Assembly (NCBI GenBank): GCA_964484505.1
Contig: CAZAFB010000003.1
Coordinates: 37,044 to 101,043 of the forward strand
DNA: 64,000 nt
Direction of reading: 5' to 3'
Origin: an uncultured Bdellovibrionales bacterium
GTDB lineage: Bacteria; Patescibacteriota; Minisyncoccia; Moranbacterales; GWC2-37-73
The translations under genes and the position numbers were made by a program. The notes beneath the pieces are model-generated. The model searched no databases and was not told where the DNA came from. It saw only the letters and a list, made by a program, of their open reading frames with translations. How positions within the stretch are numbered: the stretch's first letter is position 1; each line of letters opens with the position of its first letter. Below, in pieces: positions 4,523 to 42,242 of this stretch.

Positions 4523-4609
4523 CACGAATTGATGACGAATGAAAACGAATCACGAATTCGTGTTTCGTGGAAATTCGTTCATACATTCGTGAAAATTTGT
4601 CAAAAATAA

Positions 4610-12172: not shown

Positions 12173-12635
12173 AACACTGCTAAGTGAAAAATTGAGGCGT
12201 GGGAGATGTTAACTGACATCGACCGCGCCTTTTATTTTGCAAAGAAATTTCTTGAATTTCTTTGCACGCGGACAGATGCGGACGAGACGCAGAATTACGC
12301 GGAAAAATATCAAAACCGATTCGAATCTACGAATATCCGCAAATAAACTAAAAATGCAAAATACTTCGATACTCGAAAGTATCAAAGTATTTGACCAATT
12401 TATTTTTGAAGAAATTTTTTGATAAAAAAACAAAGCCATATGGCCTTGTCCTTATGTGCCGCGGGAGAGACATCTCACTCGCTCTGACTTTCAGTCTGAG
12501 CTCTTTGAAAACCCACGGTTTTCAAGACTTTCCTTCACGGGAAAACTCAGGTTTTCCCGACCCCTTTCCTGGTTCGAGTCTCCAAAGAAATAAAATTTAA
12601 AAGCCAACTATAAATAGTTGGCTTTTAAATTTCAG

Positions 12636-12719
12636 TACCGCGGGAGAGACTCGAACTCTCATGATATTGCTATCGCTGGATTTTGAGTCCAGTGCGTCTA
12701 CCAGTTCCGCCACCGCGGC
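12636..12719 (-). tRNA. tRNA-Leu(CAA), type II with a long variable arm
   Basis: Manual fold: acceptor GCCGCGG/CCGCGGT, D-loop GAACTGGTAGA, anticodon stem CTGGA/TCCAG with loop CTCAAAA, variable arm GATAGCAATATC, T-arm GAGAG-TTCGAGT-CTCTC. Confidence 0.75.
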
Positions 12720-12866: not shown

Positions 12867-13271
12867 ATGCAAGAACCAAAACAAACAATTAAAAGTTTTC
12901 GTGATTTGGAAGTTTATAGAAATACATATGATGCTAGTATTGTGGTTATGAAAGAAATAGTGCCGTTGCTTCCGGATTCGGAAAAATATGATCTTAAAGA
13001 TCAATTATCCAGATCAAGCAAAGCTGTTCCGCGGCTCATTGCTGAGGGTTATGCAAAAAGACATCAGAAAGCAGGATTCCAAAAATATCTAGACGATGCC
13101 ATGGGAGAATGCAATGAGACCATAGTTGGACTTGAACAATGTTGTGATATTTATGATATCAATAAAGAAAAATGCCAAAAATTAATTGACACATATGATA
13201 AGTCTGGAAGACAATTATACAGATTGTCAGAAGCATGGAGTCGATTTAAAGACGGAAGACGTAACCATTAA
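12867..13271 (+). CDS. Four-helix-bundle protein (23S rRNA intervening-sequence protein family)
   Basis: FRDLEVYR ... DLKDQLSRSSKAVPRLIAEGYAKRHQKAGFQKYLDDAMGECNETIVGLE matches the IVS four-helix-bundle family. It is flanked by an imperfect inverted repeat, GGTTATGGTAACGAG and ATCGTTACCGTTACCC. Confidence 0.7.
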   Translation: MQEPKQTIKSFRDLEVYRNTYDASIVVMKEIVPLLPDSEKYDLKDQLSRSSKAVPRLIAEGYAKRHQKAGFQKYLDDAMGECNETIVGLEQCCDIYDINKEKCQKLIDTYDKSGRQLYRLSEAWSRFKDGRRNH

Positions 13272-15137: not shown

Positions 15138-15619
15138 CACGTGATTAAAATGATTGCACTGATCATAAATGCAGCATGAAAAAATATGTTGATGACAAAT
15201 ATTATAAATCTGAAGTAACCGGCAGCATAATTAACTGCGCGCAGAGAGTTCATCGCGAGCTAGGCAATGGATTCCAAGAAGTCATTTATCAAAAAGCTTT
15301 AGAAATAGAACTAAAACGTGCTGGCCTAAAGTTTGAACGAGAAAAGGAGATGGCTATTTATTATGAAAACGAACTCATCGGAACCAGGAGAGTTGATTTT
15401 CTTGTTGATAAGGATATTATGGTTGAACTAAAAGCAACTACAAAACTGGAAGACGTCAATGTGGCACAACTCATAAACTATATAGAGGCATATAAGGTAA
15501 AAGTAGGCCTGCTTATAAACTTCGGCTCAAAAAGTTTGGAAGTGAAACGTTATGTAAAATGATCCCTATCACGTGTAATCAGGGAAATCAGTGCTAATCA
15601 GTGGTTCTCTAGTGGTTCT
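15122..15619. mobile_element. Family A element carrying a GxxExxY (PD-(D/E)xK-like) gene between 21-bp terminal inverted repeats
   Basis: Left end AGAACCACTGATTAGCACGTG (15123-15143). Right end CAGTGCTAATCAGTGGTTCTC (15589-15609), plus a partial second copy TAGTGGTTCT. 19 of 21 positions match as a reverse complement. Confidence 0.55.
15176..15562 (+). CDS. GxxExxY family protein (PD-(D/E)xK nuclease-like fold)
   Basis: NGFQEVIYQKALEIELKRAGLKFEREKEMAIYYENELIGTRRVDFLVDKDIMVELKA ... GLLINFG matches the GxxExxY family. Confidence 0.75.
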   Translation: MKKYVDDKYYKSEVTGSIINCAQRVHRELGNGFQEVIYQKALEIELKRAGLKFEREKEMAIYYENELIGTRRVDFLVDKDIMVELKATTKLEDVNVAQLINYIEAYKVKVGLLINFGSKSLEVKRYVK

Positions 15620-40201: not shown

Positions 40202-40308
40202 GATCGCGAATGATCACGAATAAAATTTCGCGAATTTACACGAATGACTTGCTGAAATTATTCGAGATTATTAATGATAAATTAGTGTAAATTAGCGAAT
40301 AAATTAAT
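40202..40308 (+). repeat. r-protein leader repeat copy 5 (more diverged)
   Basis: GATCGCGAATGATCACGAATAAAATTTCGCGAATTTACACGAATG ... GATAAATTAGTGTAAATTAGCGAATAAATTAAT. Confidence 0.65.
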
Positions 40309-40695: not shown

Positions 40696-40802
40696 GGATA
40701 TGAATCGCTAATCGACACGAATTTTATCTCGAATAATCGCGAATGAAATTCATTAGAGAAAATTAGCGATAAAATTAGCGTAAATTAGAGATTTATAACA
40801 TT
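40696..40802 (+). repeat. r-protein leader repeat copy 6
   Basis: GGATATGAATCGCTAATCGACACGAATTTTATCTCGAATAATCGCGAATG ... GATAAAATTAGCGTAAATTAGAGATTTATAACATT, then ATG. Confidence 0.7.
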
Positions 40803-41288
40803 ATGGCAGTAAAAGCAGTAAAAAAAGTTGAGAAAAAAGATGCGCCAAAGGCGGCGAAAACGGTAAAGGCGTCAGCAGCTTCTTCCAAAGAGAAATATTT
40901 TGCCGGTGTTGGAAGACGCAAAGCTTCCGTAGCGCAGGTCCGCATATATCAGCAAGAAGGTTCCGGCGAGGCTGATGTGATGATCAATGACCGCAAGATG
41001 AAAGACTATGTTCCCATGGTTAATTTGCAAACAACCGTGCTTGCACCAATGAGAGTGACTGGCACATTTGGCAAATTCCGCATGAGCGTGGTTGTTCGCG
41101 GTGGCGGTTTCAATGGACAAGCTGAAGCGATCCGCTTGGGACTTTCCCGCGCGCTGGTGGCATATGACGAAGCGCTCAAAAAAACGCTTCGTGACAATGG
41201 TTTCCTTACCCGCGATTCCCGCGCCGTAGAACGCAAGAAGCCGGGTCTCAAGAAGGCAAGACGTGCTCCACAGTGGGCTAAAAGATAG
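40803..41288 (+). CDS. rpsI: 30S ribosomal protein S9 with a Lys/Ala-rich N-terminal extension
   Basis: S9 core GGGFNGQAEAIRLGLSRAL ... KKARRAPQWAKR after an approximately 30 aa KxxA tail. Confidence 0.9.
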   Translation: MAVKAVKKVEKKDAPKAAKTVKASAASSKEKYFAGVGRRKASVAQVRIYQQEGSGEADVMINDRKMKDYVPMVNLQTTVLAPMRVTGTFGKFRMSVVVRGGGFNGQAEAIRLGLSRALVAYDEALKKTLRDNGFLTRDSRAVERKKPGLKKARRAPQWAKR

Positions 41289-41401
41289 AATATCTTTCAG
41301 CACAGTGTGGAAAGGAAAGGGGTCGGGAAAACCTGGGTTTTCCCGTGGCGGAAGTACTGAAACCGCTGGGTTTCAGGGAGCGAAGCGACTCCACAGTGGG
41401 C
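41279..41401. repeat. Hairpin-rich insert at the 3' end of rpsI, bounded by the 13-bp direct repeats CTCCACAGTGGGC
   Basis: Direct repeats at 41266-41278 and 41389-41401. Between them lie GGGAAAACCTGGGTTTTCCC and CTGAAACCGCTGGGTTTCAG hairpins. The 38-bp core recurs at 12533-12570 in inverted orientation. Confidence 0.55.
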
Positions 41402-41496
41402 GAAGCGTTAGGATACGAATTTTCGCGAATTGGGAAACGAATGTTCACGAATCGCGAATTTCACGAATACTCAGCAATACCAAGATTTATATACAA

Positions 41497-41523
41497 AAAA
41501 CGCCTTATTTGGGCGTTTTTTGG
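41497..41523 (+). terminator. Rho-independent terminator closing the r-protein cluster
   Basis: AAAACGCCTTATTTGGGCGTTTTTT. Confidence 0.75.
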
Positions 41524-41639: not shown

Positions 41640-42242
41640 ATGAAAAGAACTAGAAGGACCAAACTTGAGATGGGGATGAAAAATGATATCCAAAGAGCTG
41701 GCGTGGTTTTTTCCTTGTATGGGACATTAATTCAGTTTATTGAAAGAATGGCTGATTTATTGGCAAAAAGCAAAACAGACGTTGTCTTATTGAAAGATAT
41801 TATTCCTGAAAAAAACGATCAAGCGACCATTTTCAGAATGATGAAAGAAGTTAATTTACCAGGCTGTGCGATTGATTTTATTGCTTGGATTAATCTGGCG
41901 AAAGTAGTAACGGATAATTGGAAAGATCTCGTCAGTAGTGATATTGTCCAGGTTTTTAAAAATATTATTGTTCATCCCAGCGTAAAGAAAACGGACATGG
42001 TAAATATACTACATTTATTTTGTTCCAACAGCTTAATGTTTTATCACTACTTGAACTTTGAGATTCAAAAAAGATTATTCCCGTTCGAAGGATTCGAGGA
42101 ATTGGATGAGAATTCTCTTATGACACTGATTAGACTCAGTGGTTTGGCTTCCAAATATAAAGAGTTGTTTTTCTGGGAGCAAAGAAATGGCAGGAAACAT
42201 CCTGCTCGCGATATGATATTGGAGGATATATTGAAGGGATAA
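41640..42242 (+). CDS. Hypothetical protein
   Basis: Strong SD GAAGGAGG. No recognisable domain. Has its own consensus promoter and terminator. Confidence 0.5.
   Translation: MKRTRRTKLEMGMKNDIQRAGVVFSLYGTLIQFIERMADLLAKSKTDVVLLKDIIPEKNDQATIFRMMKEVNLPGCAIDFIAWINLAKVVTDNWKDLVSSDIVQVFKNIIVHPSVKKTDMVNILHLFCSNSLMFYHYLNFEIQKRLFPFEGFEELDENSLMTLIRLSGLASKYKELFFWEQRNGRKHPARDMILEDILKG

Follow-up and report, generated by a model that had tools for sequence, protein, structure and literature searches.

Integrative elements that target the 3' ends of tRNA, tmRNA and protein genes, such as tyrosine-integrase islands, prophages and cis-mobilizable elements (CIME), insert into the last part of a gene, carry a replacement for the gene end, and leave the displaced resident end behind as a direct repeat of variable length. 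These elements are kilobases long and depend on an integrase. Far smaller units without proteins also exist. The attP(+) sites of CTX phage and of integrative mobile elements exploiting Xer (IMEX), and the attC sites of integrons, fold as single strands so that a stem presents the recombination site as a duplex. For the Patescibacteria we know of almost no mobile-element biology. Here we describe a non-coding element of about 110-190 nt, two copies of which lie in a 64,000-nt stretch of contig CAZAFB010000003.1 (the window, by which we mean the whole stretch). Copy A follows rpsI, the gene for ribosomal protein S9 (41289-41411, plus strand), and copy B follows a tRNA-Leu gene (12457-12634, minus strand). 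Related loci that were compared with the window are labelled with L-numbers. Our data indicate that the element was inserted behind rpsI, and suggest that it brings a new end for the gene that it follows and moves between distantly related hosts.

Results

Both copies are flanked by a repeat of the gene end

A sequence-only reading of the window had proposed a small insertion at the 3' end of rpsI, flanked by 13-nt repeats and sharing a hairpin core with the tRNA-Leu locus. We found that the window contains exactly two occurrences of CTCCACAGTGGGC, 41266-41278 and 41389-41401, both on the plus strand (chance expectation 0.04; two matches in 0 of 100 shuffles), and that the left copy forms the last codons of rpsI. 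The core is likewise common to both loci. The 38 nt originally noticed match 12533-12570 of the minus strand with 3 differences (92%), and GGAAAGGGGTCGGGAAAACCTGGGTTTTCCCGTG is present at 41314-41347 (+) and, with one mismatch, at 12536-12569 (-), where none is expected by chance.

Two further features had been overlooked. The right repeat at rpsI does not stop after 13 nt but continues as a synonymous S9 C-terminus through the stop codon; the left gene end reads GCT AAA AGA TAG and the right one GCG AAG CGT TAG, both encoding A-K-R-stop. The tRNA-Leu copy, too, lies between 13-nt direct repeats, GTCTCTCCCGCGG (12638-12650 and 12459-12471; expectation 0.01). In the right copy at this locus the T loop is altered to GTGAGAT, and the same GTGAGAT recurs in other members of the family described below.

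The site behind rpsI is empty in the closest relative

In the closest relative found (L130/L131, S9 89% identical) rpsI ends in ...GGGCAAAACGCTAG, followed by 3 nt, then by GCAATACCAAG... and a terminator. The sequence after rpsI in these loci is the sequence that lies downstream of the element in the window, and the resident terminator, located downstream of the insertion at 41495-41521, is homologous to the one that directly follows rpsI in the empty-site relative. Since rpsI is joined directly to resident downstream sequence in the closest relative, the element is an insertion, as had been proposed. The locus is also empty in L135 (S9 70% identical) and is occupied in L132-134 (73% identical), and a covariance model of the core (R2, see below) detected no core in the empty loci. 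The reconstructed empty allele of the window would read rpsI ...CCACAGTGGGCGAAGCGTTAG....

For copy B, a search for an empty site by way of the neighbouring 358-aa protein gave no syntenic relatives. A metagenome scan of tRNA-Leu 3' ends found about 113 of 120 loci empty, none of the empty ones from a close relative; occupation is sporadic. The element is present in every contig of the same species, and a number of these contigs break inside or beside it, as expected for a repeat: L127, L128 and L129 end within copy A, and L138-L141 start in or near tRNA-Leu and copy B. The element family causes assembly breaks.

The element has a target-specific closing stem and a conserved, covarying core

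All parts of the element have a fixed order. The 3' end of the gene (the left copy) is followed by a spacer, which often contains a terminator-like hairpin, and then by a 5' arm, GGA-AAGGGGUC and hairpin P2. The downstream half consists of GUG-NN-GGAA, hairpin P3 (apex AAACCG..GGUUU), a variable hairpin P4 (often GCGAAGC), GAC and a 3' arm. Close to its 3' end the gene contains a stretch of 12-20 nt whose reverse complement forms the 5' arm. The 3' arm is the same stretch in the sense orientation and runs on to the gene end, forming the right copy. At tRNA targets the sequence of the 5' arm is ..GGATTCGAAC, which complements the T loop and the 3' strands of the T and acceptor stems, and the T loop of the right copy is often changed to GTGAGAT, which places a tandem G-A mismatch in the closing stem. 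The minimum free energy fold of copy A consists of this closing stem (P1), P2 and P3 (-41.8 kcal/mol, z = -2.7). Thus the 38-bp hairpin of the sequence-only reading is present but is only part of a larger structure, which comprises a closing stem specific to the target, two hairpins that are conserved and a third that varies.

Aligning whole elements with MAFFT and RNAalifold recovered only P2, because of length variation, and a covariance model restricted to the core (R2) was used instead. Within the window R2 detects only the two copies, at 84.4 and 75.5 bits. The next full-length match scores 10 bits, and weaker matches of about 18 bits are the antisense of the same two P2 hairpins. In total R2 gave 110 hits in 100 sources, extra diverged copies included. 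Across these 110 aligned copies 89.9% of cells are paired, compared with 77.1% in shuffles and at most 66.8% in slid controls. Compensatory (double) changes are found in 14 of the 17 pairs; there are 228 double-change cells against 71±7 expected, a number that 0 of 500 shuffles reach. P2 is paired in 97% of cells and has compensatory changes in 6 of 9 pairs, and all 8 pairs of P3 have them. G-U pairs in P2 and P3 (24) far exceed A-C pairs (4), which indicates that the strand that folds is the sense strand, either as RNA or as single-stranded DNA.

Flanks were complete in 106 instances. Exact direct repeats of 11 nt or more are present in 72 of these (0 in shuffled controls), and exact inverted repeats of 8 nt or more, with one arm in the 5' flank and the other in the downstream region, in 43 (6 in shuffles).

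The repeats are two alleles of the gene end

The repeats had been taken for target-site duplications created on insertion. Their lengths (11-85 nt), their position, always the 3' end of the upstream gene, and their synonymous divergence speak against this. At protein genes the left and right copies differ in 35 synonymous and 8 non-synonymous codons in total. Given as synonymous to non-synonymous, the counts at rpsI are 3:0 in the window, 3:0 in L087, 3:1 in L132 and 2:1 in L069; they are 5:0 over 26 codons of fusA in L007, 8:1 for rpmG in L086, 10:2 for pgk in L119 and 1:3 for an unknown gene in L090. This ratio indicates that the two copies diverged as parts of two functional orthologues and not by neutral drift from a duplicate made on insertion.

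The codons at rpsI also tell the two copies apart. The left copies (window, L087, L132/133) all read AAA AGA TAR, while the right copies that differ from the left (window, L087, L132) and the empty L130 allele encode that arginine by CGY; L133 and L014 have identical left and right copies. Since the left codon pattern is common across hosts and the right one is that of the empty allele, the distal part of the left copy would travel with the element and the right copy would be the displaced resident end. At L132 the left copy came with its own terminator, and the resident terminator, homologous to that of the empty site, remains on the right. In the window, the part of the left copy beyond the exact repeat (TAAAAGATAG) is thus probably element-borne, and the right copy, a pseudo-C-terminus of S9, is probably the former end of the resident gene.

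In every case the duplication begins at the stem, immediately behind the conserved GAC, and extends to the gene end; its length is 23 nt at rpsI, 49 at rpmG, 67 at pgk and about 85 at fusA. This places the point of recombination in the stretch matched by the stem. Judged from these comparisons, the element appears to carry a replacement gene end, so that the gene now finishes with the copy from the element and its resident end has been pushed downstream.

The element probably moves between divergent hosts

The copies at rpsI in the window and in L087 are far more alike than the genes that they follow. The last 300 nt of rpsI are 70% identical, with 45% identity at third codon positions. The cores are about 97% identical (by eye from the alignment), with stem and loop positions counted that are free to vary in the family at large, and the whole elements are 84.4% identical (computed). 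Near-identical copies in hosts whose rpsI synonymous sites are saturated point to movement of the element between hosts. On the left side similarity starts only at the 14-nt GCTCCACAGTGGGC, and on the right side about 13 nt are common to both loci. This late start on the left argues against ordinary homologous recombination and for exchange within the site defined by the stem.

The core defines a family in the Patescibacteria

We built a degenerate pattern from both window copies and scanned it against species-representative genomes. More than 119 further genome loci match the core pattern, nearly all of them in metagenome-assembled genomes of Patescibacteria, with carriers among the Parcubacteria, Saccharibacteria-labelled genomes, Kaiser-, Nomura-, Jorgensen-, Colwell- and Moranbacteria and others. 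Judged by its S9 protein, the organism of the window itself falls near the Moranbacteria. The core is thus a repeated family, as the sequence-only reading had supposed, and inspection of the flanks of these copies showed that direct repeats are the rule. No match to the core pattern was found in viral contigs, which gives no sign of a phage-borne parent. A covariance search with Rfam 15 gave no match at the element for either window copy, at the gathering threshold or at E<=10, and for 20 related loci matches above the gathering threshold were to tRNA, rRNA and RNase P only. A literature search that included the core sequence as a string found no description of the element. These therefore appear to be an undescribed family of tiny non-coding gene-end insertion elements.

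Most instances (75 of 122) lie 5-122 nt downstream of a tRNA gene on the same strand, and at least 34 isoacceptors are represented among the matches listed. Most of the others follow conserved protein genes: rpsI, fusA (EF-G), rplL (L7/L12), rpmG (L33) and pgk (PGK). Copies at rpsI are found in the window and in L014, L019, L069, L087 and L132-134. The strand of the element is always that of the upstream gene. Tandem or multiple copies exist: L018 has three within 8 kb, and L063 has a tandem pair of mutually diverged copies.

A different conserved core, GCCGGAGCGAUG...CCGCGAGGCGGUGGC...AAAAUUUUCGGAAGAAAAUUUU, lies behind tRNA-Leu in L193, L205, L238 and L165. The layout there is tRNA, terminator, inverted arm GAGACGAGAAC, core and a right copy of the tRNA 3' end. 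This suggests that small elements of more than one kind share the insertion mechanism. Further small hairpin inserts, with partial repeats of the tRNA end, are seen in L171, L235, L252 and L267.

Some loci depart from the usual arrangement. In L083 (2372-2425) and L038 (1500-1600) the spacer and the 5' arm occur once more past the right copy; these partial second copies end exactly at the first core bases, with GGGAAAGGGGG and AGGAAAA respectively, and unrelated DNA follows, so that at these loci breaks recur at junction J1, where the core begins. Cores without arms lie between the genes of tRNA arrays in L094, L097 and L098. A gene for a large serine recombinase converges on the array in L094 and L097, L094 also has a GIY-YIG gene, and the tRNA clusters of the three loci may be mobile or phage-derived. 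In L028, L033, L041, L068, L117 and L008 the core lies amid many hairpin repeats of the GGAGG/CCTCC type, for example gtctcccttaggagggag. The arms there are short (CCCGU/ACGGG) and the gene-end repeat is not clear; these cores may represent a different context or a repeat array.

Features of the two copies and their surroundings

Positions of the features at copy A and copy B in the window.
Feature	Position	Strand	Evidence
rpsI (ribosomal protein S9), target gene of copy A	40803-41288	+	open reading frame; Pfam PF00380 Ribosomal_S9, E 2.6e-41
Left gene-end copy, APQWAKR-stop; exact repeat 41266-41278	41266-41288	+	sequence
Spacer from stop codon to 5' arm; similar in L087 and L132	41289-41299	+	
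5' arm GCACAGTGTGGA; pairs with 3' arm (10 of 12 pairs) as closing stem P1	41300-41311	+	minimum free energy fold
Junction J1 AAGGAAAGGGGT; AAGGGGT invariant across the family	41312-41323	+	
Hairpin P2 (CGGGAAAAC-CTGG-GTTTTCCCG)	41324-41345	+	fold and covariation
Junction J2 TGGCGGAAGTA; GUG-NN-GGAA conserved	41346-41356	+	
Hairpin P3 (CTGAAACC-GCTG-GGTTTCAG); apical AAACCG..GGUUU conserved	41357-41376	+	fold and covariation
GGA, mini-hairpin GCGAAGC (variable P4 position), conserved GAC	41377-41389	+	
Right gene-end copy; 3' arm of P1 at 41390-41401, then GCG AAG CGT TAG	41389-41411	+	
Resident rpsI terminator, hairpin and T run	41495-41521	+	by eye; terminator scan did not call it
tRNA-Leu(CAA), target gene of copy B	12635-12719	-	ARAGORN; Rfam tRNA 56.7 bits
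Left repeat copy GTCTCTCCCGCGG: 3' strands of T stem and acceptor of tRNA-Leu	12638-12650	-	
Terminator-like hairpin between tRNA and element, 20-pair stem and T run	12591-12634	-	
5' arm GGAGACTCGAACC, reverse complement of tRNA-Leu T arm; family pattern ggaTTCGAAC	12571-12583	-	
Conserved core of copy B (J1, P2, J2, P3)	12502-12570	-	covariance model R2, 75.5 bits, E 7e-22
Extra hairpin at variable P4 position (CTCAGACTGAAAGTCAGAG)	12482-12500	-	
3' arm and right copy: CGAGTGAGATG, then GTCTCTCCCGCGG (12459-12471), then CA	12457-12481	-	
Second terminator-like hairpin and T run after right copy	12424-12449	-	by eye; terminator scan did not call it

Two terminator-like hairpins frame the arms and core of copy B. 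The one between the tRNA and the element is probably element-borne, and the same arrangement is seen in many members of the family; the one after the right copy is probably the resident tRNA-Leu terminator.

Near copy B lie genes of the PF05635 (23S rRNA intervening-sequence protein / Avd-like) and PDDEXK_3 families (12867-13271 and 15176-15562). These families are widespread among Patescibacteria, and nothing was seen to connect them with the element. Behind copy A, the 62 nt that come after the right rpsI copy occur in the relatives with an occupied site, L132-134, but not in the empty-site L130. A 200-aa open reading frame (ORF) just downstream (41640-42242, +), which matches no Pfam family, gives way to two other ORFs in L122, whose S9 protein is identical, and to a short ORF in L130, which indicates that a hypervariable locus adjoins the insertion. 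Intergenic stretches rich in (C)ACGAAT-like repeats occur at 41404-41465, 40700-40760, 40215-40245, 4523-4591 and 12300-12340; CACGAAT is found 19 times in the window against 9.75±3.2 expected, in clusters.

Discussion

A proposed mechanism

The account that we favour, with a probability approaching but not reaching an even chance, is a mobile element that replaces gene ends by recombination at a site defined by its stem, carried out by an enzyme acting in trans. Its parts differ in strength. Recombination at the stem-matched site is supported by the start of the duplicated segment at the stem, and a hairpin DNA substrate with a recombinase in trans may be how it is achieved. The mobile form would be a loop or circle consisting of gene end, spacer, 5' arm and core, with a postulated junction core-GAC-TCCACAGTGGGCTAAAAGATAGAATATC.... 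Recombination would take place inside the closing-stem stretch, which the 5' arm would make double-stranded in the folded single strand, mimicking the target duplex. The conserved core would serve as the handle for a recombinase, which we place in trans because the element encodes none. A single-strand or Campbell-type exchange at this position would give the observed order of gene end, spacer, inverted arm, core and gene end. We prefer exchange at a site presented by a hairpin because the inverted arm has a role in a folded single strand only. We offer the loop or circle, the hairpin-presented site and the recombinase in trans tentatively, as details more apt to be revised than to stand.

A bolder form of this idea is that the closing stem is a programmable address. 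In that case a protein-less hairpin of about 150 nt, as RNA or single-stranded DNA, would specify its site by base-pairing identity with 12-20 nt of a conserved gene, would be inserted by trans-acting machinery of the Patescibacteria, and would repair the gene with the end that it carries; unrelated cores, such as this one and the GCCGGAGCGAUG type of L193, L205, L238 and L165, would use the same machinery. We regard this as doubtful, though not far-fetched.

Several searches bear on the enzyme and on the mobile form. ORFs that overlap the element are not conserved across the length variation of the family, so the element encodes no enzyme. All-against-all clustering of the ORFs within ±3 kb of the 119 loci showed no enriched protein family; a large serine recombinase is found at 3 of these loci and a GIY-YIG protein at 3. 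No distant left repeats were found for copies that lack a near one, which indicates that these copies are not the ends of large islands. No sigma-70-like promoter was found before copy A, and before copy B there is a weak 9-of-12 match. GC skew is positive across the whole window while copy A is co-oriented and copy B counter-oriented, so there is no replication-strand rule. A simple fold-back (snap-back) origin of the 5' arm was considered and rejected; the inverted arm of copy B is not continuous with the left terminator palindrome.

A number of observations weigh against the recombination account. No recombinase was identified and no excised or circular form was seen among the sequences compared. 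XerCD and IntI, recombinases that use hairpins, need sequence or structure motifs of their own, and such motifs are not present at the element. The targets are too diverse for a classical sequence-specific enzyme, the account leaves the matching of the 5' arm to each new target unexplained, and no empty site was obtained for the tRNA-Leu copy. Other features would fit a transcribed functional RNA: many P2 loops are GNRA-like, the J2 dinucleotide covaries with the type of P3 loop, and three loci (L094, L097, L098) have cores without arms in tRNA arrays. Countering these RNA features, there is no promoter, and in many copies an element-borne terminator lies upstream.

Alternative explanations

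The element could instead be the gene of a structured small RNA of host or phage, released from read-through or polycistronic transcripts of tRNA or ribosomal-protein genes. The closing stem, at tRNAs a 12-bp minihelix resembling acceptor and T stem, would then serve processing or stability, and the repeats would be by-products of duplication beside a host gene. We consider this unlikely, although it draws on the strong covariation of P2 and P3, the conservation of the core sequence across many candidate phyla, the GNRA-like P2 loops, the arm-less cores between tRNA genes, and an orientation that is always that of the upstream, highly expressed gene. A resident RNA gene should not change its place from genome to genome, among at least 34 tRNA types and several protein genes, or be absent at the locus of the closest relative. 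Nor would it be near-identical in hosts with saturated synonymous divergence, or coincide with replacement of a gene end by a foreign, synonymously different copy. In many copies a terminator separates the host gene from the element, and a promoter is lacking. RNA function and mobility are compatible and not mutually exclusive.

Homing driven by RNA is a second alternative, which we rate as quite unlikely. The arms, one for each target strand, would guide an enzyme encoded in trans, as the bridge or seek RNAs of IS110/IS1111 do, or the element would insert by reverse splicing and reverse transcription. The combination of a scaffold with variable, target-matched arms, the fold of the sense strand, the highly transcribed targets and a recombination site that coincides with the arm-matched stretch would all agree with it. 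However, no DEDD recombinase, reverse transcriptase or other enzyme is linked to the element within ±3 kb of the 119 loci, no Rfam ribozyme matches it, and it has no promoter. In contrast to bridge RNAs with their split guides, the two arms cover one stretch and form pairs with one another.

It is distinctly improbable that general homologous recombination after DNA uptake accounts for the element, with a double crossover through the conserved gene on the left and the gene-end repeat on the right and no dedicated enzyme. Such an exchange explains the variable length of the repeats, the element-borne left and resident right flanks, and precise loss. The shared stretches between the window and L087, the 14-nt GCTCCACAGTGGGC and about 13 nt on the right, are too short for efficient RecA action on both sides, and the conserved core and the inverted 5' arm are left unaccounted for.

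The 3' ends of tRNAs and crossovers in the T loop are the classical targets of tyrosine integrases, which replace gene ends by the same principle, and each copy could be the remnant of a decayed island or prophage in a tRNA or gene 3' end, whose attL and attR became joined by an internal deletion. This is very improbable: more than 100 independent copies have the same small core and size, there is no integrase nearby and no distant left repeat, the core is absent from viral contigs, and an inverted 5' arm is not a feature of att sites.

Finally, the view of the sequence-only reading, a hairpin transposon like a miniature inverted-repeat transposable element (MITE) whose transposase makes a 13-bp target-site duplication, is hardly credible. 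Both window copies do have 13-nt repeats, but across the family the repeats are 11-85 nt long and always gene 3' ends, the 35:8 synonymous divergence contradicts this view, left copies cluster across hosts and no transposase is linked.

If the stem of this gene-end-replacing element truly addresses insertion, the element would be a natural, minimal and sequence-programmable DNA insertion system, and would point to a further recombination activity in a large section of the bacterial tree that is poorly understood. Even taken conservatively, it represents a new, widespread and structured non-coding family with no match in Rfam 15. It accounts for pseudo 3' ends of tRNA and housekeeping genes and for contig breaks in assemblies of Patescibacteria, and it documents horizontal exchange among divergent ultra-small bacteria at the resolution of single genes.

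Comparison with known systems

The diversity-generating retroelements (DGRs), which are common in Patescibacteria, have template and variable repeats (TR/VR) that resemble the present arrangement in that a copy of a gene 3' end lies shortly downstream, beside a structured non-coding region. We rejected this reading; the differences between the copies are synonymous and of all base types, not adenine-specific, the targets are housekeeping genes and tRNAs, and there is no reverse transcriptase nearby.

Like MITEs and the small repeats Correia/NEMIS, ERIC, RUP and REP/BIME, the element is small, non-coding, multi-copy and hairpin-forming and breaks assemblies. Unlike these, it has no duplication of fixed length, is confined to gene 3' ends, copies its target in both orientations and has a low copy number per genome. 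The terminal inverted repeats of a MITE are distinct from the duplication, whereas here the right inverted arm is the repeat itself, and no transposase is enriched within ±3 kb of the 119 loci.

The bridge (seek) RNAs of IS110/IS1111 and other elements programmed by guide RNAs also combine a scaffold with variable target-matching segments, one sense and one antisense. The present element differs in having no adjacent DEDD recombinase, in arms that form one terminal stem instead of internal loops with split guides, and in a long gene-end duplication in place of a 2-nt core.

The likeness to the attP(+) of CTX phage and IMEX and to integron attC lies in a small unit without proteins that would fold as a single strand, in a predicted stem that would present the recombination site as a duplex, in a mismatched stem centre (here the tandem G-A where the T loop was), and in an integrated fold that would give the observed order of parts. 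In contrast to these sites, there is no dif-like XerCD site, there are no R and L boxes with extrahelical bases, and there is no common site motif. The stem is the target sequence and varies from copy to copy, a core of several hairpins lies outside it, and a single-stranded DNA intermediate is only postulated.

With the integrative elements of tRNA, tmRNA and protein-gene 3' ends the element shares insertion into the last part of the gene, the carried replacement end with att-like flanking repeats, and the displaced resident end as a direct repeat of variable length, which in tRNAs commonly begins in or next to the T loop, as it does here. It differs from integrase islands in its size, 110-190 nt against kilobases, and in having no cognate integrase; it also has a structured conserved core, an adjacent inverted copy of the target and dozens of targets within one family. 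The element thus shows the complete set of defining features of none of the families compared, and the integrative elements of gene 3' ends are its closest kind.

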